A stretch of DNA of 64,000 bases from Leptospira sp. (GCA_034439575.1 JAWXAQ010000035.1:1-64000); one strand, 5' to 3'; shown: positions 11,463 through 36,933, counted from the stretch's first letter. Translations and numbers: made by a program. The notes: generated by a model not told the origin, from the letters alone.

Positions 11463-14272
11463 ATCAGAATCTCAATACAAATGTTTTAATCAGTGGAGGC
11501 GGGCCATCAGGGATGATAGCCGCCTTATATCTTTCCAAACTAGGAATCAATAATATTCTATTGGATAGAAAACCTTCGATTCAATCACATCCAAAAGCAC
11601 ATGAAGTGAGTAGTCGATCTTTAGAAATATTACATACATTAGGTGTCAATATTGAGAAACTGATCAAAGAAGCCTCCGATTATGAAACAGCCTCTAAAAT
11701 TTTGTTTTGTAATACGATAAACGATGAAATAGGTAGGATTGATCTATCGGATCCTTCGATTCAAAATAAATACATTTCAAATGTTTCAGTACACGTTCCT
11801 TATCTCAACATATCACAAACAGAGTTGGAAAAAATTCTCCGACAAACTTTAGCGAAGGAAAAGAATACTATAATATTATTGAACCATCAATTAAATTCAT
11901 TTGAAGAGGTGGATGAATTTGTAAATGCAAGGATTGAGAATCGAGAATCAAACCAACAATTTTTAATCCAAAGCAAATATCTAATCGCAGCTGATGGTGC
12001 AAATTCACGCATTCGAAAACAATTAGGAATCAAATTAAAAGGACCAAATAAAATCCAAGATGTCGTAAATGCGTATTTTACAAATGATTTGAGTCAATTT
12101 ATAAAAACCAAAGCGAAGTTATACTGGATCTTTAATCCAAAATCAGCGGGTGTCATGATAGCACATCATCCTGAAAAAAGATGGGTCTATCATCTACCGA
12201 TAGAAACTCCGTATGAAAAAATTGAAGATTATAATGAAGCCTATTTTCAAAAAAAATTACAAATCGCAACAGGCCTTGGCGAGGACTATCAATTTAATAT
12301 TCAATCTATCAGTCATTGGCGAATGACTGCCCAAATCGCCGAAAAATTTCGCAAAGGGAACATTTTTTTAATTGGCGATGCCGCACATAGATTCCCTCCA
12401 ACGGGCGGACTTGGAATGAATTCGGGAATTGCAGATGCATTCAATTTATGTTGGAAAATAAAATCTGTGTTATGTGAAGAATCTGCCGATTCAATTTTGG
12501 ATAGTTATGAGACAGAAAGAATGCCTATCGTTGTCGCTAACTGTAAGGAAAGTAAATTCAATTGGGAAAAAATATTAGAAGTACCGGCAAGCCTGGGTTT
12601 AAATGTGAAGATAGGAACATTATGTACTCGTATTTTATATTCTATCCCAAATATAATATTGCCATTTCATCTTAAAAATTACTTACGAAGTAGAATTGAA
12701 ATTTTTGCTGAAAAACAAATGAATTCTAAAAGACAGAATACGAAGGCAACTCTTATCACCAAACATAAAATTAATGAACAAATTCAACATTTTGATCGTA
12801 TTGGACTGGATTTAGGGTATAGTTATGTCCAAAATCTAGAGACTAATAAAGGTAAACAGAGGTTAAATATAGATTCTTATGAACCGGAAATTTGTATAGG
12901 GAAAAGGTTTCCTCACTTCTTTTTGGATCCAAAAATCAAAAAACATTCTAGCCACTCTCTTTTGTCTCCTACGCAATTTACACTCATCATTTTTGAAGAG
13001 TCGCCTTATAAAAAAATTGTTTTGGAACTAGAAAAAGAAATGGGAAAAAAATCAATTTTATCTGTAAAAATGATCAAGGCAAACGAATTAGAAATAGATA
13101 CTTTACAAAAATTGAAAGTAAATATATCAAGTTTAATTCTTGTTAGGCCAGACGGCCATGTTTTTGGATTATCTGACGAGTTTGAAGAACCATCGTCTGT
13201 AAAATTTGTTCTAAAAAATTGGATGTTTCAAATTGCTAAAGGAGTAAATATAATGAATCAAATTCCATCTATGAAAAATAAGGTTAACAAGGATAATAAA
13301 ATGTTTATAGGAATCGGAATATTATTTTTAACAATCACTTTGTTTGTTTTTTATCTTTTTCGGCCCTTAGCCATGACACCTACCCCAGCTCAATTTGATT
13401 TGGTAGAACTTTCAGAAGGAACGATACATACATTTTCCCCTAAACCAAATTTGATATATGGAATGGGTTTAGTATATGCGAATCATATTGCAGAAACCGC
13501 AAACAATTTTGATCCAAACATTTCCCCACCCATATTTTTAAAACATAAAAGAACTTTAGTTAGTTCAGAAAAAGAAATCTTGCTACCAAATAAAGATCAG
13601 CTTCTGTCAGACCTTTTTGCTTTTGAACCAGAATTAAAGAATGATCATAGATTATCCAATGTAGAAATTCCTGCACTTCTCGACTATGAAGTAGAATTGG
13701 GATTTGTACTTTTGGAAGATATCAATCCTGATAGTTTATTTGATTTAAATTTTTCACCTAAAATTGGATTTTTTATAGCCAATGATTTATCTGCACGCAC
13801 CTTGGCCGTGTTTGGTGAAGGTAAAAACAATCGAGCAGAGTATTGGGGTGTTTCAAAAAGTTTCGAAGGATTTTTACCGATCTCATCCTCTTATTGGATC
13901 CCAAAATCATTTAAACCAAATTTGTTGCCAAACATTGAACTAGAAACGTATGTGAATGGAGAATTACGTCAGAAAGAAAAAGTTTCTAATATGATTTATA
14001 CTCCCAAAGAAATGTTACAGTGGATTCATAAGAAGTATCCCTCAAATGCATTGAAAAAAGGAGACATGATCATCACAGGTACTCCAGGGGGAGTGGCCAT
14101 GACAGCCCCAAGATTCCTTTCACGACTATTGGAATTATTGAATGTAGATCGATTTACAAAACTGAAATTGGTTTTGAAGAAGGATAATTCGAAATTTCTC
14201 AAAGGTGGCGATGAAGTATTGGTAAAAGGCTTAGGTCTCGCTGAAATTAAAAGTAAAATTATCGAAAAATAA
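11459..14272 (+). CDS. FAD-dependent monooxygenase fused to a TM segment and a fumarylacetoacetate hydrolase (FAH) family domain
   Basis: GGGPSG, AADGANS, GDAAHRFPPTGGLGMN, LVRPDGHV; then LDYEVELG, ANDLSAR, GDMIITGTPGGV. Confidence 0.85.
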   Translation: MNQNLNTNVLISGGGPSGMIAALYLSKLGINNILLDRKPSIQSHPKAHEVSSRSLEILHTLGVNIEKLIKEASDYETASKILFCNTINDEIGRIDLSDPSIQNKYISNVSVHVPYLNISQTELEKILRQTLAKEKNTIILLNHQLNSFEEVDEFVNARIENRESNQQFLIQSKYLIAADGANSRIRKQLGIKLKGPNKIQDVVNAYFTNDLSQFIKTKAKLYWIFNPKSAGVMIAHHPEKRWVYHLPIETPYEKIEDYNEAYFQKKLQIATGLGEDYQFNIQSISHWRMTAQIAEKFRKGNIFLIGDAAHRFPPTGGLGMNSGIADAFNLCWKIKSVLCEESADSILDSYETERMPIVVANCKESKFNWEKILEVPASLGLNVKIGTLCTRILYSIPNIILPFHLKNYLRSRIEIFAEKQMNSKRQNTKATLITKHKINEQIQHFDRIGLDLGYSYVQNLETNKGKQRLNIDSYEPEICIGKRFPHFFLDPKIKKHSSHSLLSPTQFTLIIFEESPYKKIVLELEKEMGKKSILSVKMIKANELEIDTLQKLKVNISSLILVRPDGHVFGLSDEFEEPSSVKFVLKNWMFQIAKGVNIMNQIPSMKNKVNKDNKMFIGIGILFLTITLFVFYLFRPLAMTPTPAQFDLVELSEGTIHTFSPKPNLIYGMGLVYANHIAETANNFDPNISPPIFLKHKRTLVSSEKEILLPNKDQLLSDLFAFEPELKNDHRLSNVEIPALLDYEVELGFVLLEDINPDSLFDLNFSPKIGFFIANDLSARTLAVFGEGKNNRAEYWGVSKSFEGFLPISSSYWIPKSFKPNLLPNIELETYVNGELRQKEKVSNMIYTPKEMLQWIHKKYPSNALKKGDMIITGTPGGVAMTAPRFLSRLLELLNVDRFTKLKLVLKKDNSKFLKGGDEVLVKGLGLAEIKSKIIEK

Positions 14273-15622: not shown

Positions 15623-17684
15623 CGAACCATCTAAAGGAATAGATACGTCCGCTTATCCCCTTCTGAAACAATTTCCGGATAGTTTTCAGATTTTTAATTG
15701 GGAAGGGGAATTTATCTCAGTTACAGAACGCTTTTGTCATTTATTAGAGTATTCTGAAAAAGAAATACTCGGTAAAAAATTAATTCACTTCATTCCTGAA
15801 GACGATCATGACCAACCTCTCGAAGCGCTGAATGATATGCGTCTTCGTAAAACCATTGCCAATTTTGAAACTAGGCTTCAAACAAAAAGCAAAGAAGATG
15901 TTTTGATCATGTGGATCGCGATTCCTTTATTCGAATCAAATGTAATCTTAGCTATTGATCGGGACATTACGATTCAACGAGATATCTCGTATGAATTTAT
16001 GCTCCAACAACAAAAGTATAAATCAATTTTTGACAATCTCCCTATGGGCATAGCCATAACCGATGACAAAGGACGCATCATTGAAACAAATCGGACAGCT
16101 AGAGTTTATTTTGATATTCGGGAAGGCGAAACATTAAATCGTACACTCAATTTGAGAAAGTACACCATGATCCAACCAAACGGTAGCAAGGTGTACCCTA
16201 GAAAATCCAGTCTAATGCGCGCTTTACGAAATAGAGAAGTGATTCGTGATATGGAACTTGGATTGATTAAACAAAACTCGATTATATGGTTTGAGATTTT
16301 AGCTACACCTATTCCTATAGAAGGATTTGGTTTGGCTGTGGCTTTTGTTGATATCACAAAACGAAAAGCGGCAGAAGAACAAATTGCCTATATGGCATTT
16401 TTTGACCAACTAACAAATCTTCCGAATAGAAATTCACTAATAGACAAATTATTTCCTATTTTTGAAGAAGCAAGACGCCACGGAAATTTAGTCGGTATAC
16501 TCGTTTTGGATTTAGATAATTTCAAAGTTTTTAATGATTCTCGCGGACATGAATTTGGTGATAAAATATTAAAACTGATTGCTTATAGAATTCGTGAAAG
16601 TATCCGAACATACGATCTTATCTCTAGACAAGGTGGTGATGAATTTACGATCGCCTTACCAGATTTAAACGACGAGAAGGAAGCGGCCATTATCGCAGAA
16701 AGCATATTAGATGCGATGAACCATCCTTTTCATATCGATGGTGAAAAGATTTTTGTAAACGTATCCATTGGCATTTCTCTTTACCCAAATGATGGAAAAG
16801 ACGCAAATACTTTGATAAAGAATGCAGACAGTGCATTACACCTTGCGAAACAACAGGGAAAAAGTTGTTATGTTTTCTTTAAAGAAGAATTGCAAATCAT
16901 TGTCGCCGAGAGATTGGATCTTGAAAATAAATTGAGAGTGGCACTCATCGAAGATCACTTAAGTTTAGTATTCCAACCAAAAATCGATCTCAAGACTTAT
17001 AAACCTGTCGGCGTTGAAGCTCTACTTCGATGGAACCATCCTACAAGAGGTATGGTTCCTCCAGATGTTTTTATTCCTATAGCTGAAGAAACAGGAATGA
17101 TCATTCCGATCGGCGAATGGGTTTTAAAAAAATCGATTCAAATGTTAAAATCATGGAATGATGCTGGGATCAAAAATTTGACGATGGCCGTAAATATATC
17201 CACCAAACAATTTAAACATGAAAGACTAATATCCGTTATATCAGAAAACTTAAGCAATTCAAATATTGATCCTAGACTTTTGGAAGTTGAGATCACGGAA
17301 AGTTCCCTAATGGATGATGCCGCAGTTGCTGTGAAAACGTTGCAACAAATCCGGGCGCTTGGTGTCACGATTGCCATTGATGATTTTGGAACAGGTTATA
17401 GTTCTTTAGGGTACCTACGAAAATTTCCAATTTCCTGTCTAAAAATTGACCGTTCTTTCGTGGCTGAAATTTCAACGGACAAAGATTCAGATACGATAGT
17501 TCATGCTGTTTCCAATTTAGCGCATAACCTCGGCATGAGTGTCGTTGCGGAAGGTGCCGAAACGCTGGACCAAGTGGAGCTTTTGTTAGCCAGTGGCATC
17601 GATAGCATCCAAGGATTCTATTTTTCAAGACCCTTATCGCCTACGGATTGCCTAAATTTTCTTAAAGATAAACTAGGAATTTGA
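15612..17684 (+). CDS. PAS-PAS-GGDEF-EAL c-di-GMP signalling protein
   Basis: Two PAS-like regions, QGGDEF, VEALLRW, DDFGTGYSS. Confidence 0.92.
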   Translation: MRNDEPSKGIDTSAYPLLKQFPDSFQIFNWEGEFISVTERFCHLLEYSEKEILGKKLIHFIPEDDHDQPLEALNDMRLRKTIANFETRLQTKSKEDVLIMWIAIPLFESNVILAIDRDITIQRDISYEFMLQQQKYKSIFDNLPMGIAITDDKGRIIETNRTARVYFDIREGETLNRTLNLRKYTMIQPNGSKVYPRKSSLMRALRNREVIRDMELGLIKQNSIIWFEILATPIPIEGFGLAVAFVDITKRKAAEEQIAYMAFFDQLTNLPNRNSLIDKLFPIFEEARRHGNLVGILVLDLDNFKVFNDSRGHEFGDKILKLIAYRIRESIRTYDLISRQGGDEFTIALPDLNDEKEAAIIAESILDAMNHPFHIDGEKIFVNVSIGISLYPNDGKDANTLIKNADSALHLAKQQGKSCYVFFKEELQIIVAERLDLENKLRVALIEDHLSLVFQPKIDLKTYKPVGVEALLRWNHPTRGMVPPDVFIPIAEETGMIIPIGEWVLKKSIQMLKSWNDAGIKNLTMAVNISTKQFKHERLISVISENLSNSNIDPRLLEVEITESSLMDDAAVAVKTLQQIRALGVTIAIDDFGTGYSSLGYLRKFPISCLKIDRSFVAEISTDKDSDTIVHAVSNLAHNLGMSVVAEGAETLDQVELLLASGIDSIQGFYFSRPLSPTDCLNFLKDKLGI

Positions 17685-30542: not shown

Positions 30543-30989
30543 TTATTTTGTTAGGAGTAAATCCAATGAGAATTTCCCACCTCCATTGATTAAAAGAGCG
30601 ACAGCCATCGAAAGAAATAAGACAAAAAATTCAATACCTTCGCCTTTTTGATTACCAAACCAATTCATAAAAAATCCATTTTCCCAATGAACAAGGATCA
30701 TAGCGAATAGTAATATAACTCCTACGTATAATGCAAAAAAACGAGTTCCTATACCAAATACTAAACCAATCCCACCAAAAAATTCACCTAATATGATTAA
30801 CAGCGAAATGAGCCAAGGCAAACCCATGGTCTTTGTAAAAAAGTCCATAGTTCCCGAATATCCGTAACCTCCGAATAAACCGAACAATTTTTGTACTCCA
30901 TGCATCCATATTACACTTCCTAAACTTAGCCTTAATACTAGTGATGCCCAACTATTATCTGTGTTTAAAATTCTCAAAATTGTTTCCAT
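30543..30989 (-). CDS. DoxX family membrane protein
   Basis: LRLSLG, HGVQKLFG, GEGIEF; AGGAGG RBS before the ATG at 30989. Confidence 0.9.
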   Translation of the reverse strand: METILRILNTDNSWASLVLRLSLGSVIWMHGVQKLFGLFGGYGYSGTMDFFTKTMGLPWLISLLIILGEFFGGIGLVFGIGTRFFALYVGVILLFAMILVHWENGFFMNWFGNQKGEGIEFFVLFLSMAVALLINGGGKFSLDLLLTK

Positions 30990-31006
30990 GGGAAACCTCC
31001 TATTTT

Positions 31007-31060
31007 GTTGACATGTCAACTATACAATAACCAATCCCGAAATGTTGTTGACGTGTCAAC
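31007..31060. promoter_or_regulatory. Two palindromic operators (likely MarR boxes) between divergent doxX and marR
   Basis: GTTGACATGTCAAC at 31007-31020 and GTTGACGTGTCAAC at 31047-31060, 40 bp apart. Confidence 0.8.
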
Positions 31061-31082
31061 TAAAATAAGAAACCTTTTTCTT

Positions 31083-31532
31083 ATGGATGAAAAAAAAAAT
31101 AAAAACGAAGAGATTGAAATTTGGAGAAATTTTCTAGTCTATCACAACGAAGTAACGAATCAGATTGATAATGCATTAAAAAAGGCAGATTGCATCTCAC
31201 TTGCTTGGTATGACATACTGATAGTATTAGAACGTTCAGAAAATAAAAGTCTGATTATGAAAGAGCTTATACGTGAAACTGTACTAACTAAGAGTGGAGT
31301 TTCAAAAATCCTGGATAGAATTGAGGAAGGTAAACTCATTACGAGAAAACAATCTCAGCATGATGCCAGATCAGTACAAGTCTTCATTACTAAACAAGGT
31401 AGTCTTGAAGTCCGAAAAGCTTGGGCAATTTACAAAGAAAACATTGAAGGATACTTTTTAAATCCTTTGACTCCAACAGAGAGATCAACTCTATCGACCA
31501 TTTTTACCAAACTAAGAACTAATCTACGTTAG
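31083..31532 (+). CDS. MarR family transcriptional regulator
   Basis: WYDILIVL, LTKSGVSKILDRIE, DARSVQVFITKQG. Confidence 0.9.
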   Translation: MDEKKNKNEEIEIWRNFLVYHNEVTNQIDNALKKADCISLAWYDILIVLERSENKSLIMKELIRETVLTKSGVSKILDRIEEGKLITRKQSQHDARSVQVFITKQGSLEVRKAWAIYKENIEGYFLNPLTPTERSTLSTIFTKLRTNLR

Positions 31533-31782: not shown

Positions 31783-32019
31783 TTGATTCCTCTTTTTGTA
31801 TTTCTATGAAAGAAGAATAGCATGTTCCATTGATATGAGTCTTGGAAAAACGTGTAGAATTAGTAATTATTCGAAAATCTTCCTTCAATGGGAGAAAAAA
31901 CAGGAATCCATATTTTAATAGCTTCTAAGCTGATTTTCATTCTGCATACTATTTTCGTTATGCGGGATTATTTAAAAGGATCTGGTTAGATTTGGATAAA
32001 AGGTAATTTTCTAAGTATT

Positions 32020-32133
32020 CAATTGAGCAAAAACCTTGTTTCCATCGGTGACGGAGACATGGATGTCGGAGTCCTTCCTTCGAGCACGGAAGTGAGAGGG
32101 AAGGGAGATGGGTACGAGGTTTTTTCTCAATTG
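32020..32133 (+). repeat. Structured repeat family A, copy 1
   Basis: AAACCTTGTTTCCATC...GACATGGATGTC...CACGGAAGTG...GATGGGTACGAGGTTT; stem extended by CAATTGAG/CTCAATTG. Confidence 0.9.
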
Positions 32134-32170
32134 GAGAAAAACAAAATAACAATATCCTTTTAATTCCCTT

Positions 32171-32309
32171 GGGCACCTCGCATCCGTTATATTGATGTCA
32201 CTTTGTGCGAATAACCGATCCCGCTTTTCGCTCCAATCTTTCGCATAACTTTATTTAAATAAATTTATTTTGGACGCGAAAGGATTTCCGCTTCAATCGG
32301 TGGTGCTGG
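32171..32309 (-). repeat. Repeat family B copy, overlapping the 3' end of the YdeI gene
   Basis: Minus strand CCAGCACCACCGATTGAAGCGGAAATCCTT...GCGGGATCGGTT...ATATAAC...CGAGGTGCCC; matches 36069-36209. Confidence 0.85.
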
Positions 32310-32885
32310 ATGATTCGCTTTTATGTTTTTTCCAGCTAAATCGACCGTTTGTTCTATTCGCTGTTGTCTTGTCTCGGTTTTTTTAGCGCTGAGTATCCAT
32401 AACAAAATTATTTTTTTAGAGGACGACGAAAATAACATAAAGTTGGCATATGCCTTTTTGTTCTTATTAAACAATTTGTGTAGGTCGTCTGGAATCGTTA
32501 GATCCTCAATCGAGTCCAAAGCAGTCCATGTGCCCGTTGACTTGGCAAGCTCAATCATTTCAAGTCCAGTTGGAGTCATCAATCCTTGCTCAATCAATCT
32601 TGCTACACGTTGTTTGTTGAGCTTACTCCAATTGCTTTTGGGTTTTCGTTTTGAAAAGTATTGTATGCTACTTTCTTCGTCTCGTTTCTTCTTAATGCTA
32701 TCAATCCAACCAAAACAAAGTGCTTCTTCCACAGCTTCATCATATGTAACACTCGTTACTGATGAGCTCTTTTTGTATAATACTAACCAGACGCTTTTTT
32801 CCTTGCTCTGATTTTTCTTAAGCCAAGTGCGCCATTCTTTTCTGGACTTCGCGTAGAATAATTTATGACCGTCTATAATTTCCAT
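32265..32885 (-). CDS. YdeI/OmpD-associated family protein
   Basis: EWRTWL, YDEAVEEALCFGWIDS, SNWSKLNK, IPDDL, AKKTETRQQRI. Confidence 0.9.
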   Translation of the reverse strand: MEIIDGHKLFYAKSRKEWRTWLKKNQSKEKSVWLVLYKKSSSVTSVTYDEAVEEALCFGWIDSIKKKRDEESSIQYFSKRKPKSNWSKLNKQRVARLIEQGLMTPTGLEMIELAKSTGTWTALDSIEDLTIPDDLHKLFNKNKKAYANFMLFSSSSKKIILLWILSAKKTETRQQRIEQTVDLAGKNIKANHPAPPIEAEILSRPK

Positions 32886-32900
32886 AATAGATGAACTACC

Positions 32901-33203
32901 TTATAACTTGAAGCCTTGGATTAGAAAAGACGCTTTGATGGATTGTTCTTTCAAATAGAGAAATTTTTTGCGCTCTTCGTCATTCGAAAAATTCATAAAA
33001 TCCTCTATCGCATCGAACACAACAAGGTGAATTTCATATGGTTTATCTATACTCATTTCAATATAGGCTGAATCATTTGGTCGCATACGCATCAAAAGCT
33101 TTCCATTATATTTTGATATGATTGGTATCGCAATCCTTTCGAACTCTTCGAAGATCGCTTCTTGTCCCTCGTTAATGTATATCAATTGAGTTATGTAGAT
33201 CAT
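32901..33203 (-). CDS. DUF1330-like small protein
   Basis: PIISKYNGKLL, PYEIHLVVF pattern. Confidence 0.7.
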   Translation of the reverse strand: MIYITQLIYINEGQEAIFEEFERIAIPIISKYNGKLLMRMRPNDSAYIEMSIDKPYEIHLVVFDAIEDFMNFSNDEERKKFLYLKEQSIKASFLIQGFKL

Positions 33204-33224
33204 AATTTAAGATTAGTTTGTTCA

Positions 33225-33300
33225 GAAGAACCGATCCCTTTTCAAATGTATAGGGATTATTATCAAGAAGAAAATCCGATACCTCCGCTTCAAAGATTGG
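33225..33300 (-). repeat. Degenerate repeat family B copy
   Basis: Minus strand CCAATCTTTGAAGCGGAG...AAAGGGATCGGTTCTTC retains both conserved arms. Confidence 0.5.
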
Positions 33301-33384
33301 CAATTTACAAAAACAATTGTTAAAGCCTACCCACTCTACTTTCTCTAAATTGCAAGTGGGGTAAATTCTACTAATAAGGAATTT

Positions 33385-33600
33385 GGGACCTAGTTTATTT
33401 TATTATTCGTGGGTGTTTTACGAAATACGATAATTCGCTTCTACTTAACCATCACCATAGACCAAGCAATGCATCTTAAAAAAGCGATTTATTTATAACC
33501 AAATAAACTAAATTCATCTAACAAAAACAAGTTGCCATAATCCATAATAAAGATCCCGCTATTCGATCTTTCTCTTCGGCCAGCAAACCTTGTTTCCATC
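33385..33600 (+). repeat. ~215-bp duplicated non-coding segment (second copy 36371-36595)
   Basis: Shared ATTATAACCAAATAAACTAAATTCATCTAACAAAAACAAGTTGCCATA block plus diverged flanks, leading into repeat A. Confidence 0.85.
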
Positions 33601-33678
33601 GGTAACGGAGACATGGATGTCGGAGTCCTTCCTTCGAACACGGAGGTGAGAGGGAAGGGAGATGGGAACTAGGTTTGC
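33583..33678 (+). repeat. Structured repeat family A, copy 2 (directly 5' of rpn)
   Basis: GCAAACCTTGTTTCCATC...GATGGGAACTAGGTTTGC. Confidence 0.92.
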
Positions 33679-33722
33679 AAATTTTGAACCAGTTCACCAT
33701 TAAAAGAACCTTTCTATTCCAA

Positions 33723-34628
33723 GTGCTATCTCCAAATCCCCATGATACTTTTATCAAACGTATTTTTGCAAACAAAGACGATGAGATTGCTTTCTTTCGA
33801 GGAACCTTACCATCCGAAGTTATAGAAATTCTTGATATAGTAAATTTAGAACAAACCAAAGAATCCTTCCTACCCAAAAACCAAAGTCACTCTATAACGG
33901 ATATTTTGTGGAAGATACCGACAAAATCGGGCAAAGAAATCTACACTTATTTACTATTTGAGCATAAATCTTATCATGATCCAAATATATTTTTACAACT
34001 GCTAGGTTATATGGTTCAAATTTATCTATGGCAGAAAGGTAACGGTAAAGAACTTGTTCCCGTGATTCCTTTTGTCTTTTATCACGGAGAAAAGAAATGG
34101 GATTTGGGTCTGAGTTTCAAAGAACAATTTATTAAAAACAAAGACATACAAAAATTATCCCATTACATACCGGATTTTTTCATCGAAGTGTTTGAGTTGG
34201 AAAAGACGGATGTAAAAAAGAAATTCAATCAGTTAACACTTCGCATATTTTTAGAGCTTATCCAGAAGATTCGAGCAGATGTAGACGATTTTCGCCCAGT
34301 TTTTCTTGGGATATTGAAAGAACTGAGCCAAGTAGAAACAGAAGCAAAAAAAGTTGAAATTCTGGAGAAACTTCTTCATTATTTATTTAATGTAAGAGAA
34401 AAAGAGGAAAAAGAATTCCGCGATGTATCGTATTACCAAGTTGAGGGACTCGGAGGAGCATTTATGACAATTATGGATGAGATAAGACTAGAAGGTGAGC
34501 AGAAAGGAAAACTGGAAGGCAAACTTGAAGATGCGGAGAAAATGCTGAACGAGAAAATTGATATTTCTGTGATTTTAAGGGTAACGGGTCTTAAAGAATC
34601 CGACTTACGAAAACGAGGCCTTCTCTAG
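33723..34628 (+). CDS. Rpn family recombination-promoting nuclease / YhgA-like putative transposase (PD-(D/E)xK)
   Basis: NPHDTFIK, TDILW, YLLFEHKS, PVIPFVFYHG, C-terminal EG-KGKLEGKLE; GTG at 33723 is more plausible than the ORF-track start at 33675, which lies inside repeat A. Confidence 0.9.
   Translation: MLSPNPHDTFIKRIFANKDDEIAFFRGTLPSEVIEILDIVNLEQTKESFLPKNQSHSITDILWKIPTKSGKEIYTYLLFEHKSYHDPNIFLQLLGYMVQIYLWQKGNGKELVPVIPFVFYHGEKKWDLGLSFKEQFIKNKDIQKLSHYIPDFFIEVFELEKTDVKKKFNQLTLRIFLELIQKIRADVDDFRPVFLGILKELSQVETEAKKVEILEKLLHYLFNVREKEEKEFRDVSYYQVEGLGGAFMTIMDEIRLEGEQKGKLEGKLEDAEKMLNEKIDISVILRVTGLKESDLRKRGLL
34464..34628 (+). CDS. Putative internally translated small Rpn C-terminal protein (RpnS-type antitoxin), 54 aa
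   Basis: GGAGGAG-CATTT-ATG in frame inside rpn: MTIMDEIRLEGEQKGKLEGKLE... Confidence 0.65.
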   Translation: MTIMDEIRLEGEQKGKLEGKLEDAEKMLNEKIDISVILRVTGLKESDLRKRGLL

Positions 34629-34656
34629 TAGCCTGCACCACCAAAGAGCTGACTGG

Positions 34657-35187
34657 ATGAACCTGTCTGATGCCACATCGAAGTCTGGTGTCACTGAAAT
34701 AGGGCTAACATCCGTTCTTCGAAATGATGGCTCCTCACATGAAAAGGGTTATTCGATGGATGTTGGAACTATATCTTATTTTAATCAAGCAACCGATAAA
34801 ATAGTAACGGAACCAATAAAATACACGAACAAGGATTTTAAAACTTTGCCAGAAAATACATTAGCAAAACCAAGTGGGACTATCGCTGACTTTCTGGAGG
34901 CAGACAGAATAGAAAGGTCTATACTATACAATCTTAACCCGTATTATATGGTCAACAAGACTGGCGAAGTCATTCCTAATTTCTTTACTTTCGCTCCTAA
35001 GAACTTGTGGGAAACTGACTTTACAAAATTGTCTAAAGAAGACCAGGAAAATGTGGTAACTAGAATGATTGAAGCGGCAAGAGAACATGGGCCAGATTCT
35101 TATACTTTAACAAGAGATATGGCGATCAGAATGTGGGATCATCGCAATCATTTGCACATTTCTGAAACTGGGTTTGGAAGCAAATGA
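34657..35187 (+). CDS. Probable orphan C-terminal fragment with LAS/peptidase M15-like Zn motifs
   Basis: SSHEKGYSMD (H-x6-D) and HRNHLHIS (HxH); no clear RBS; frame open upstream to the repeat junction. Confidence 0.55.
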   Translation: MNLSDATSKSGVTEIGLTSVLRNDGSSHEKGYSMDVGTISYFNQATDKIVTEPIKYTNKDFKTLPENTLAKPSGTIADFLEADRIERSILYNLNPYYMVNKTGEVIPNFFTFAPKNLWETDFTKLSKEDQENVVTRMIEAAREHGPDSYTLTRDMAIRMWDHRNHLHISETGFGSK

Positions 35188-36068
35188 AAATTTTCAATGT
35201 AATTGCGATTGTTTTTTTCAGTTTATTTTGCAAATCGGAAATGACCAAAGGTCAAACCCAGAAAGAGAACATTTCTCAGTCACATTCTATCGATTATTTT
35301 TTTGATTTGTGGAATATTAATCTCAAAGAAGATTTTAAGAAAGCTTTGAATTCTAATATCGAAGAGGTTCTATATGTAAAATTTAACGATTTTCTGTCAT
35401 TCCGAATGACAAAGTCAATCTTTAAATCAGAACCATTTGATAAGACTCGGTTTTCGATGATTTTAAGTTATCCAGAACCGAATTTTCCAGGAAGAAACGA
35501 TAAAATATTTAACTTTAGAGATGGACGCATTTCTGAGATTTATCGAGAACTAACATATAATAAAATAGAGGAGATAGGGAATACGAATATAGGACTTGCT
35601 TTCACATACAACCAGGGTCTTTTGTCAGAAATATCCTGCCATCACCTGCCGGGATCAAACGGAGCACGATGTGAAGACTCCATCTTTCTCAATACCGATG
35701 GCTCCATTCGGGAAGTAAAAGAATTTAAAATACAATGTAAGCAAGGTTGCGGGCAATTCCAACCTCTACGACAACCAGGGGATTATTTTATCAGCACAAA
35801 CCAAGTATGGGTAAGAGAAAAACCAGATACAAAATCTAAAATCATCGCGGAACTTTCTAAAGATGCAAAGATTGAAGTAATAAAGGATGCCGAGAAATAT
35901 GAAAAGATATTTCCTCATTATGCAACCTGGGCCCAAGTAAAGTTGGCTGACGGCCAGGAAGGTTATGTGTATGGGGCATTTCTTAGAGCACCAGGTGAGC
36001 CTGATGTGGTAGCGATCAAAGAGAAAGCGGAGATTTGGAAAAAGGAAAATGGGGTGATGGGAAGGTAG
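35184..36068 (+). CDS. Exported (possibly lipo)protein with C-terminal bacterial SH3 domain
   Basis: MKIFNVIAIVFFSLFC signal; VWVREKPDTKSKII...WAQVKLADGQEGYVYGAFL. Confidence 0.8.
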   Translation: MKIFNVIAIVFFSLFCKSEMTKGQTQKENISQSHSIDYFFDLWNINLKEDFKKALNSNIEEVLYVKFNDFLSFRMTKSIFKSEPFDKTRFSMILSYPEPNFPGRNDKIFNFRDGRISEIYRELTYNKIEEIGNTNIGLAFTYNQGLLSEISCHHLPGSNGARCEDSIFLNTDGSIREVKEFKIQCKQGCGQFQPLRQPGDYFISTNQVWVREKPDTKSKIIAELSKDAKIEVIKDAEKYEKIFPHYATWAQVKLADGQEGYVYGAFLRAPGEPDVVAIKEKAEIWKKENGVMGR

Positions 36069-36209
36069 CCCTGCACCACCGATCGAAGCGGAAATCCTTA
36101 CCCTATTAAAAATAAAATATACATACTTAGAGTTATGCGAAAGATTAAAGCGGAGAGCGGAATCGGTTCTTTCGGAAATGCTCCATCCGTATAACACATC
36201 CGAGGCGCC
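36069..36209 (+). repeat. Repeat family B copy
   Basis: CCCTGCACCACCGATCGAAGCGGAAATCCTT...GCGGAATCGGTT...TATAAC...CGAGGCGCC. Confidence 0.85.
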
Positions 36210-36253
36210 AAAAGTAAAGAAAGAGATTTTTATATTCGATCTTTCTTCGGATG

Positions 36254-36351
36254 AGCAAACCTTGTTTCCATCGGTGACGGAGACATGGATGTCGGAGTCC
36301 TTCCTTCGAACACGGAGGTGAGAGGGAAGGGAGATGGGAACGAGGTCTGCT
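36254..36351 (+). repeat. Structured repeat family A, copy 3
   Basis: Near-identical to copy 2. Confidence 0.92.
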
Positions 36352-36370
36352 GGGTAAAGCGCACCGAGAA

Positions 36371-36595
36371 CGGGACTAGAAACTAGTTTTTAATATTAGC
36401 GCGTGTTTTACGCAATGCGATAAAACCCCATCAGATTACCATCACCACCAAACACTCATTGAATCTTATAAAAAGCGGTTTTGATTATAACCAAATAAAC
36501 TAAATTCATCTAACAAAAACAAGTTGCCATATTCCATAATAAATATCCTATTATTCGATCTTTCTTTTTTCGGCCAGCAAACCTTGTTTCCATCG
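36371..36595 (+). repeat. Second copy of the duplicated non-coding segment
   Basis: Aligns with 33385-33600. Confidence 0.85.
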
Positions 36596-36672
36596 GTAGC
36601 GGAGCCAGGATGGCGAAGCGGGGGCATTCGAGCAGGAGTGCGAGACAGCCCCGAGATGGGAACAAGGTTTGC
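36577..36672 (+). repeat. Structured repeat family A, copy 4 (divergent interior, same fold)
   Basis: Same terminal arms; interior GCCAGGATGGC...GGGGC...GCAGGAGTGC...GCCCC. Confidence 0.85.
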
Positions 36673-36694
36673 CATCGATGGAAACGAGGTTTGC

Positions 36695-36790
36695 CCCTGC
36701 TCCACCGATCGACCGAGCGCCCTCGTCGAGGGAGAGCGGGATCGGGTCATACAAGATTATGTACATCCATATAACAAATCCGAGGTGCCC
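36695..36790 (+). repeat. Repeat family B, short variant
   Basis: CCCTGCTCCACCGATCG...GAGAGCGGGATCGG...ATATAACAAATCCGAGGTGCCC. Confidence 0.8.
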
Positions 36791-36837
36791 ATCGTCATAA
36801 ATCAAATATAGCTATTCGTTCTTTCTTTCTTCGGCCT

Positions 36838-36933
36838 GCAAACCTCGTTTCCATCAGTAACGGAGACATGGATGTCGGAGTCCTTCCTTCGAGCACGGAA
36901 GTGAGAGGGAAGGGAGATGGGAACGAGGTTTGC
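36838..36933 (+). repeat. Structured repeat family A, copy 5
   Basis: GCAAACCTCGTTTCCATC...GATGGGAACGAGGTTTGC. Confidence 0.92.

Follow-up and report, generated by a model that had tools for sequence, protein, structure and literature searches.

Five co-oriented repeats in a 64,000-nucleotide (nt) stretch of Leptospira sp. DNA (GCA_034439575.1, JAWXAQ010000035.1:1-64000; hereafter the window) represent an undescribed family of structured intergenic elements, which we confirmed in Leptospira and in related genera. Contig C35, which forms the window, belongs to a 4.1-Mb genome in 37 contigs (99.98% complete). Each element folds into a three-way junction, and selection acts on one of its strands, on which compensatory changes preserve the fold and a GGA triplet is kept in both apical loops. 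Judged from its sequence, the element may act as an RNA that is bound by the protein CsrA; this is the leading functional reading, and we hold it tentatively.

A repeat search of the window recovered one repeat family, with five co-oriented copies starting at positions 32019, 33573, 36245, 36567, and 36828 (spacing of 1554, 2672, 322, and 261 nt). The repeat unit spans 106 nt, including a 10-nt upstream piece, and the copies are 70-94% identical to the reference copy. The initial annotation of this DNA had described five copies of about 96 bp on the + strand, and this description was borne out by the structured cores. The cores and the parts attached to them are as follows, with scores from R1, a covariance model built from the 26 copies of this genome:

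32029..32124, + strand: copy 1, three-way-junction element (106.3 bits)
33583..33678, + strand: copy 2, three-way-junction element with variant A hairpins GACATGGATGTC and CACGGAGGTG (114.4 bits)
36255..36350, + strand: copy 3, three-way-junction element, variant A (110.3 bits)
36577..36672, + strand: copy 4, three-way-junction element, variant B, with GCCAGGATGGC and GGGGC...GCAGGAGTGC...GCCCC (105.6 bits)
36838..36933, + strand: copy 5, three-way-junction element, variant A (114.4 bits)
33561..33582, + strand: CT-rich leader ATTCGATCTTTCTCTTCGGCCA, directly 5' of copy 2 and kept in most of the 26 genomic copies
~36233-36254, ~36553-36576, and ~36814-36837, + strand: equivalent CT-rich leaders, 5' of copies 3, 4, and 5
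36673..36694, + strand: partial copy directly 3' of copy 4, with about 20 nt matching the 3' strand of the closing stem; inverted repeats

Each core comprises an 18-bp closing stem (P1) and two hairpins (P2 and P3), which meet at a purine-rich three-way junction, and each window unit contains 6-7 GGA triplets. The hairpin letters given in the initial annotation hold for copies 1, 2, 3, and 5 and fail for copy 4, which contains neither GACATGGATGTC nor CACGGARGTG; its variant B hairpins, with a GGGGC/GCCCC arm replacing CCTTCC/GGAAGG, leave the fold unchanged and retain both GGA loops. In copy 1, the outer stem is degenerate (AAAAACC...GGTTTTT) and is lengthened by CAATTGAG/CTCAATTG, which extends the structure to 32020-32133. 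The CT-rich leader, TCGATCTTTCTTCGG, lies 3-5 nt 5' of the closing stem and is part of the repeat in copies 2-5; other species also have CT-rich tracts at the equivalent position. Partial copies comparable to the one that follows copy 4 were found at C8:231991-232019 and C7:101988-102020, giving three such loci in all, each after a full copy.

When folded as RNA, copies 2-5 reached minimum free energies of -44.3 to -52.4 kcal/mol (z of -4.9 to -7.6), and 0 of 200 shuffles folded as well. A truncated version of copy 1 gave a z of -2.6. Under both RNA and DNA parameters, the + strand folded 4-10 kcal/mol better than the - strand.

We then assessed covariation in a set of 36 sequences (32 from other genomes and four divergent copies from this one), using an alignment fitted to the model. 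Standard pairs occupied 93.2% of the pair cells, compared with 34.8-44.3% when the partners were slid by 1-3 columns. Double-sided changes were present at 31 of the 32 pairs, amounting to 348 cells versus 34-91 in the slid controls, and all five helices showed compensatory changes. The covariation score was 0.774 versus 0.07-0.14 in the controls, and 0 of 500 shuffles equaled it. A structure-blind alignment (MAFFT followed by RNAalifold) recovered P1, the two-pair helix, and P2, with double changes at 13 of 16 predicted pairs, while P3 was lost in that run through misalignment. The letters of P1 differ wholly among lineages and are nevertheless paired (GCAAACC, ACGAAAC, AAGTGAG, GCAGAATG, AAGTTCC); in a second family of the same order, the P1 versions are GC-rich and still paired.

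Two observations made in the initial annotation on the window copies extend to the whole genome. The closing-stem pair that it reported as covarying (columns 9/90) is U-G in 14, U-A in seven, C-G in one, and non-standard in four (two U-U, two C-A) of the 26 genomic copies. Its proposal that a single-stranded nucleic acid of the + strand is under selection agrees with the ratio of G-U pairs to A-C mismatches, which was 66:16 in the 36 sequences and 53:10 in the 26 copies of this genome; many of these counts are inherited and hence not independent. The excess of G-U pairs over A-C mismatches means that selection for folding acts on the GGA strand, in the window the + strand.

At the sequence level, conservation is concentrated in the junction purines (CGG-NR-GCG-R-AG, GRAGC, GAGA) and in the two apical loops. 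GGA was found in 36/36 P2 loops and 36/36 P3 loops of the 36-sequence set, which derives mostly from other genomes, and within this genome the loop GGA is kept rather than lost (24/26 and 26/26 copies). The pairs that close the loops vary: GCC/GGC, GGC/GCC, GAC/GTC, and GCA/TGC on the one hand, and CAC/GTG, GCA/TGC, AAC/GTT, and others on the other.

The genome-wide search that the initial annotation had called for, conducted with BLAST and an approximate search for stem halves, yielded 26 canonical full-length copies. All genomic copies are intergenic, and P2 and P3 variants are freely combined among them. The covariance model added 4-5 divergent members with an unrelated P1 (C36:160292, C30:8799, C30:8966, and C23:214/385). 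Co-oriented groups occur on C11 (five copies), C8 (four), C22 (two), and in the window (five); the remaining copies are solitary. No replication-strand bias was evident by eye in two complete genomes, for which the origin was unmapped, so this is no evidence either way.

Beyond this genome, R1 found matches in 17 of 36 other genomes of the genus and in 7 of 24 genomes from the second family of the order, and, in a phylum-wide draw of 150 genomes, in the genus only (1/4). A second model, R2, built from 36 diverse hits, matched 32 of 40 other genomes of the genus, with 1-48 copies each, and four of five genomes of the sister genus g104. R2 had no matches in the other genera of the family (0/6 in g15, 0/5 in g16, 0/2 in g17, 0/4 in g101, and 0/5 in g107). 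A lineage-specific exact pattern scan of 185,579 species genomes returned a single record, a metagenome-assembled genome of Leptospira sp., consistent with the genus named in the initial annotation, and collections of plasmids and phages contained no match to the element.

One copy recurs at a fixed position. At least nine species carry an element on the strand of the 23S rRNA gene, 150-340 nt downstream of it; about 40 nt separate the 23S terminator from this copy, which has a U-run or a second terminator after it. Across 11 aligned loci, conservation is far higher in this copy than in its flanks, and compensatory changes occur in it (CCATC/GATGG versus CTGAC/GTCGG). Other copies are convergent to tRNA genes. 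We also observed partial duplicates of the 23S gene, consisting of its last 200-260 nt, the terminator, and the element, far from the full gene (G005 L089, C1:2613937-2617030; G016 L072:12465-12664), the latter adjoining a homolog of a recombinase described below. An island integrating at the 3' end of rrl may have left these duplicates behind.

We place CsrA first among the possible mechanisms because it is, to our knowledge, the sole reader of GGA loops known in Leptospira and because the loops fit it closely. The consensus match claimed in the initial annotation is sustained: the loops CCA-R-GGA-UGG, ACA-U-GGA-UGU, AACAGGAGGUU, and CACGGAGGUG match RUACARGGAUGU, as given in PMC8668096. According to that source, recombinant L. 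biflexa CsrA bound a site in the flaB3 leader in a GGA-dependent manner in an electrophoretic mobility-shift assay, and it binds a GGA hexaloop in vitro. The 8-mer ACAGGAGG is common to the flaB3 site and to element loops of several species. As the initial annotation had expected from the genus, csrA is encoded in this genome, and it is also present in 5/5 motif-bearing genomes of the second family. Genome-wide counts of CA-N-GGA-N-G per 500 nt placed two repeat arrays within the top four segments, but the measure is too coarse to be relied on.

Under the CsrA reading, the element would act as RNA, with each unit offering two CsrA-type hairpins (CA-N-GGA-N-G in the loop) about 28 nt apart, a span that one CsrA dimer could bridge. 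Transcribed copies would bind or titrate CsrA, or would bring adjoining transcripts under CsrA control. The copies themselves would multiply as DNA, being modules, like the Flavo-1 motif (RF01705), of a mosaic repeat, and such spread would account for arrays and partial copies as well as for copy numbers that differ so widely. Spread at the DNA level and action at the RNA level are compatible. A further step, that a self-spreading, multi-copy RNA module serves as a CsrA decoy in a spirochaete that carries the CsrA antagonist FliW, with each unit presenting a pair of high-affinity GGA hairpins on its three-way junction and lineage-specific bursts of 0-48 copies shifting the level of free CsrA, is one we regard as doubtful. 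If true, no RNA that antagonizes CsrA without fitting the paradigm of small RNA (sRNA) genes would have preceded this decoy, and it would be carried on a mosaic repeat containing Flavo-1.

The coupling to Flavo-1, which has 33 hits in this genome, can be seen in the window itself:

36063..36168, + strand: Flavo-1 (RF01705), whose start coincides with the stop codon of gene 35184-36068 and which precedes copy 3 by 87 nt (42.4 bits against a gathering score of 42)
32213..32311, - strand: Flavo-1 (RF01705), facing copy 1 and located where gene 32265-32885 (- strand) has its 3' end (58.8 bits)
36694..36790, + strand: Flavo-1-like variant, sub-threshold, upstream of copy 5; inverted repeat with 32135-32198
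33398..33576, + strand, with a second copy at 36388-36568: upstream module of about 180 nt, common to copies 2 and 4, C17:802, and C33:271908

The Flavo-1-like variant has CTGCWCCACCGATCGA at its start and GAGAGCGGGATCGG with the tail CATCCATATAACAAATCCGAGGTGCCC at its end in common with the scoring Flavo-1, and cmscan reported nothing for it at E<=1. The ~180-nt module ends in CTAACA...GTTGCC, which resembles a Flavo-1 tail, and has matches of 72-82% over 228-316 nt within the genome. A Flavo-1 tail (...CCGAGGTGCCC) precedes about 10 of the 26 copies by 35-50 nt, and the same layout is found in other species. In genomes G004 and G035, the leader and the element lie inside the apical loop of Flavo-1 and occur in both orientations, as inversion between the Flavo-1 arms would produce. 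In 12 of the 33 Flavo-1 hits, the start falls on the stop codon of a co-oriented open reading frame (ORF) or just past it; 11 were counted by script, and the hit at 32213-32311 was added by hand, with an ORF overlap of 46 nt. The conserved UAGCC at the start of Flavo-1 is able to supply the stop codon, for example at 36066. Another GC-rich module, of about 105 nt and starting with AATTTGCAAGCGTGTCCGGCAAGTCCGGG, lies 3' of three copies in the C11 array (L010 ~12590-12690, ~16360-16460) and has no Rfam match.

Several observations weigh against the CsrA reading. Flavo-1 was described from Flavobacteria and is mainly a motif of that group, and CsrA had no hit in B. thetaiotaomicron, the sole Bacteroidetes control; a factor common to both modules need not be CsrA. 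The invariance of the loops is subject to ascertainment bias, as the foreign copies were found by a model trained on GGA-bearing copies, and decayed copies without GGA do exist (for example, G020 L078, at 18.7 bits). The distribution is patchy, as in selfish repeats: 8 of the 40 genomes of the genus have no copies, three of these eight being near-complete assemblies of only 3-5 contigs, and others have 28-48. Orientation relative to genes is unbiased (10 sense versus 14 antisense in co-directional intergenic regions), and in 10 of 19 convergent cases in other genomes no more than 20 nt separate the 3' end of P1 from the convergent gene's stop codon. Three to four such cases occur in this genome. 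Here and elsewhere, the genes concerned are ordinary and unrelated. In addition, FliW, whose gene adjoins csrA, is the expected CsrA antagonist in Leptospira (PMC8668096).

Also against the CsrA reading, a scan for consensus sigma-70-like promoters found none directly upstream of any window copy, and no intrinsic terminator was predicted in 31.5-37.3 kb. Public sequencing runs that match the window comprise six wastewater metagenome or metatranscriptome runs, which share 5-8% of its words; contigs from four of them fall mostly on 37.06-37.65 kb, upstream of yidC, with short pieces elsewhere, too little to bear on transcription of the repeats. A -10-like hexamer (TAGAAT, TATAGT) was found 18-40 nt upstream in 12 of 29 own copies and 8 of 38 foreign copies, compared with 0/29 and 3/38 in the antisense control (pooled, 20/67 versus 3/67), and 20 further copies showed a two- to three-fold peak of weaker -10 matches at -30 to -11. 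These boxes are only suggestive of a promoter, and the copies nested in Flavo-1 loops, whose leader measures just 24 nt, lack a -10 box. Overall, of the CsrB/RsmZ-like sponge put forward in the initial annotation, the selection on the + strand, the GGA loops, and the presence of csrA held up, whereas Rfam homology, an orientation bias, and a predicted promoter or terminator next to the window copies were not found; we keep the sponge as a proposal.

Next in standing is a DNA-level function, which we consider somewhat unlikely. The folded GGA strand, as single-stranded DNA, would be the substrate that a recombinase or transposase recognizes, much like attC sites or REP/hairpin-targeting elements, and the arrays would form via insertion or exchange of gene cassettes or small islands. 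The arrays are indeed co-oriented, with one to three accessory genes between copies, as illustrated by the genes of the window:

32265..33203, - strand: two genes between copies 1 and 2, encoding a 206-amino-acid (aa) OmdA/YdeI-domain protein and a 100-aa protein without a family
33735..34628, + strand: gene for an Rpn/YhgA-like PD-(D/E)XK protein (PF04754; Pfam 158.8 bits), between copies 2 and 3
34657..36068, + strand: two genes 5' of copy 3, encoding a 176-aa protein without a family and a 294-aa protein with a bacterial SH3 domain

The Rpn-like gene is single-copy in this genome and present in 2 of 40 other genomes of the genus, and it appears to travel with the element: in G020, a decayed copy is retained ~120 nt upstream of it though both of its neighbors differ. 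As a mobilizer it was rejected, being single-copy here and rare in the genus. At the repeat locus, a contig from a wastewater metagenome (run X2) joins the end of a repeat copy, 33677, to 36980, which lies 46 nt past copy 5, skipping 3302 nt, with only 45 nt of similarity on the repeat side; a relative may hold one copy there without the intervening genes.

The candidate enzyme for a DNA site is a XerA-type tyrosine recombinase at C11:40691-41608. It is followed by five co-oriented element copies in an integron-like layout without IntI, which together with the recombinase spans C11:40691-47218 (L010:10692-17219), and the array, which starts 3 nt past the recombinase stop codon, contains VapBC, a second antitoxin/PIN pair, and hypothetical proteins, with a 5S rRNA gene at the contig end. 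The recombinase scored 231 bits with NF040815 (cut-off 220) and 162 bits with the integron-integrase model TIGR02249 (cut-off 265), with positions 179-235 unmatched. In G016, a recombinase 51% identical to it lies 392 nt from an element copy, near a 3' fragment of the 23S gene. However, no homolog above 34% identity was found in G004, G031, or G035, which have 36-48 copies each, and a tie between the recombinase and motif abundance was rejected, with a close homolog only in G016 among five motif-rich genomes.

The positions of the copies provide additional support for a DNA site. The 3' boundary is sharp at the stop codons of unrelated core genes (adenylate cyclase, SpoIIE phosphatase, fatty-acid hydroxylase), the far side of the element at C33:271908 is not conserved in 27 genomes, the partial copies can be viewed as scars, and copies adjoin rRNA and tRNA genes. 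[quoted passage not shown] Set against this, the genome has neither IntI nor a Y1 or RAYT transposase, the stem sequence varies by lineage without a common AAC/GTT-type core or bulged bases, and no target-site duplication was seen at the copies; even within genes, the genomes nearest to this one share only ~70% identity, too little for a comparison with empty sites. The absence of the element from the plasmid and phage collections argues in the same way, and the conserved loops and junction would suit a conserved host factor better than a fast-evolving enzyme of a mobile element.

A structured RNA with another role is less probable still. The element could be a module for 3' ends or processing, its 18-bp stem serving as an RNase III target or an exonuclease block; it could mimic a Shine-Dalgarno sequence; or it could be the ligand of another protein that reads GGA or GCGGA and is common to Flavo-1. 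Such a role would be equally consistent with the covariation and strand asymmetry, and copies do lie just past terminators and between convergent genes. Moreover, GCGGA(A/G) occurs in both the junction and Flavo-1, and Flavo-1 is among the unannotated transcribed regions in Leptospira long-read data, according to bioRxiv 10.1101/2023.03.29.534852. Yet most copies are not followed by a U-tract, the element shows no preferred orientation toward genes, we know of no candidate protein, and the GGAGG that some loops read is confined to a subset, GGA being the invariant part.

Least likely is a selfish palindromic repeat without a function of its own, whose fold is a by-product of inverted termini: the patchy copy number (0 to 48), the decayed copies, and the mosaics, tandem duplications, and inversions inside Flavo-1 loops would suit it, but compensatory changes affect all five helices, the termini do not include the two inner hairpins, the G-U:A-C bias is specific to one strand, GGA is invariant in the loops of two families of the order, and the orthologous copy beside the 23S gene is better conserved than its flanks.

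Apart from the repeats, the window contains two 21-nt copies (31002-31022 and 31042-31062) with the palindrome TTGACATGTCAA (TTGACGTGTCAA in the second). They sit at the overlapping 5' ends of divergent ORFs encoding a DoxX protein (30543-31019, - strand) and a MarR-family protein (31005-31532, + strand), and look like putative MarR operator sites.

The element shows unusually clean covariation, is absent from Rfam 15, and occurs in most of the genomes of the genus examined. If the CsrA reading is true, it would provide RNA-level control of CsrA in spirochaetes, where only FliW was expected, and would tie repeat expansion to global post-transcriptional regulation. If the element is instead a DNA site, it would represent an integron-like cassette system with a non-IntI recombinase.

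Compared with known systems, the element is not a homolog of CsrB/RsmZ, an attC site, a REP/RAYT sequence, or a classical MITE, as a defining feature tested for each was absent. At the family level, the CsrB/RsmZ likeness did not survive: no Rfam family matched the element in the window at the gathering threshold (Rfam 15), permissive scans of two copies (E<=10 and E<=1) returned only microRNA noise hits, and PMC8668096 describes Leptospira genomes as lacking csrB and csrC homologs, with fliW adjoining csrA. We found no description of the element in the literature on Leptospira CsrB, RsmZ, RsmY, or CsrA binding, with the supplements of PMC4863578 and PMC11602168 not compared; in PMC4863578, one "CsrA-like ncRNA" (non-coding RNA) is predicted on L. 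biflexa chromosome I by an algorithm based on GGA density.

Like CsrB, CsrC, RsmX, RsmY, and RsmZ, the element has several GGAs per ~100 nt, two of them in apical loops fitting CA-N-GGA-N-G, and resides in a genome with CsrA. Unlike them, it is built around a three-way junction with a long closing stem, not as a string of hairpins, and occurs in up to 48 dispersed copies, in either orientation relative to genes, whereas CsrB/Rsm RNAs come from a single sRNA gene or a small number of them, with promoter and terminator. Its host has a protein antagonist, FliW.

The likeness to integrons lies both in the sites and in the arrays. Integron attC sites are structured repeats of 60-140 nt in which the fold is conserved over the sequence and one strand folds better, and integron arrays are co-oriented, with small cassettes between sites, often toxin-antitoxin pairs, and a tyrosine recombinase at one end. 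The element, too, starts right after stop codons with its structured strand antisense to the gene, as does attC, whose bottom strand is the structured strand antisense to genes. In contrast to attC, it has no R''/R' AAC...GTT boxes common to lineages (the stem ends in GCAAAC/GTTTGC here and in ACGAAA, AAGTGAG, GCAGAATG, or AAGTTCC elsewhere), its stem is continuous, without bulges, extrahelical bases, or an unpaired central spacer, and its apical loops are conserved where those of attC vary. Although the arrays are co-oriented, the orientation of the genes inside them is mixed, and many copies are solitary. An integron integrase was rejected, as no recombinase passes the IntI model and all matches are Xer-like.

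Similarly, the element resembles REP/BIME, ERIC, Correia, and BOX sequences and MITEs in being multi-copy, intergenic, strongly folded, and mosaic, with lineage-specific bursts, decayed or partial copies, and a frequent position after stop codons. It differs from these types in its branched structure, in loop triplets that are invariant across two families of the order, and in its orthologous copy beside the 23S rRNA gene. REP sequences are palindromes of 20-40 nt with a conserved tetranucleotide, unlike this 96-nt branched structure, and no PF01797 hit, the mark of a Y1 (IS200-like)/RAYT transposase, was found in the genome. As for MITEs, no autonomous partner insertion sequence was found, and the closing stem could act as inverted termini, but the conserved unit reaches 5' past the stem.

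The closest companion of the element is Flavo-1, also a multi-copy intergenic motif in Leptospira, which either lies ~35-120 nt upstream on the same strand or hosts the element. Flavo-1 differs in being a single long hairpin with internal loops and another sequence, its model hits the sequence neighboring the copies (32213-32311 and 36063-36168) and never the 96-nt element, and the element is also found in places that lack Flavo-1, such as the 23S flank. Flavo-1, for which we know of no function assigned since 2010, thus gains a context, as the partner and host of a three-way junction.

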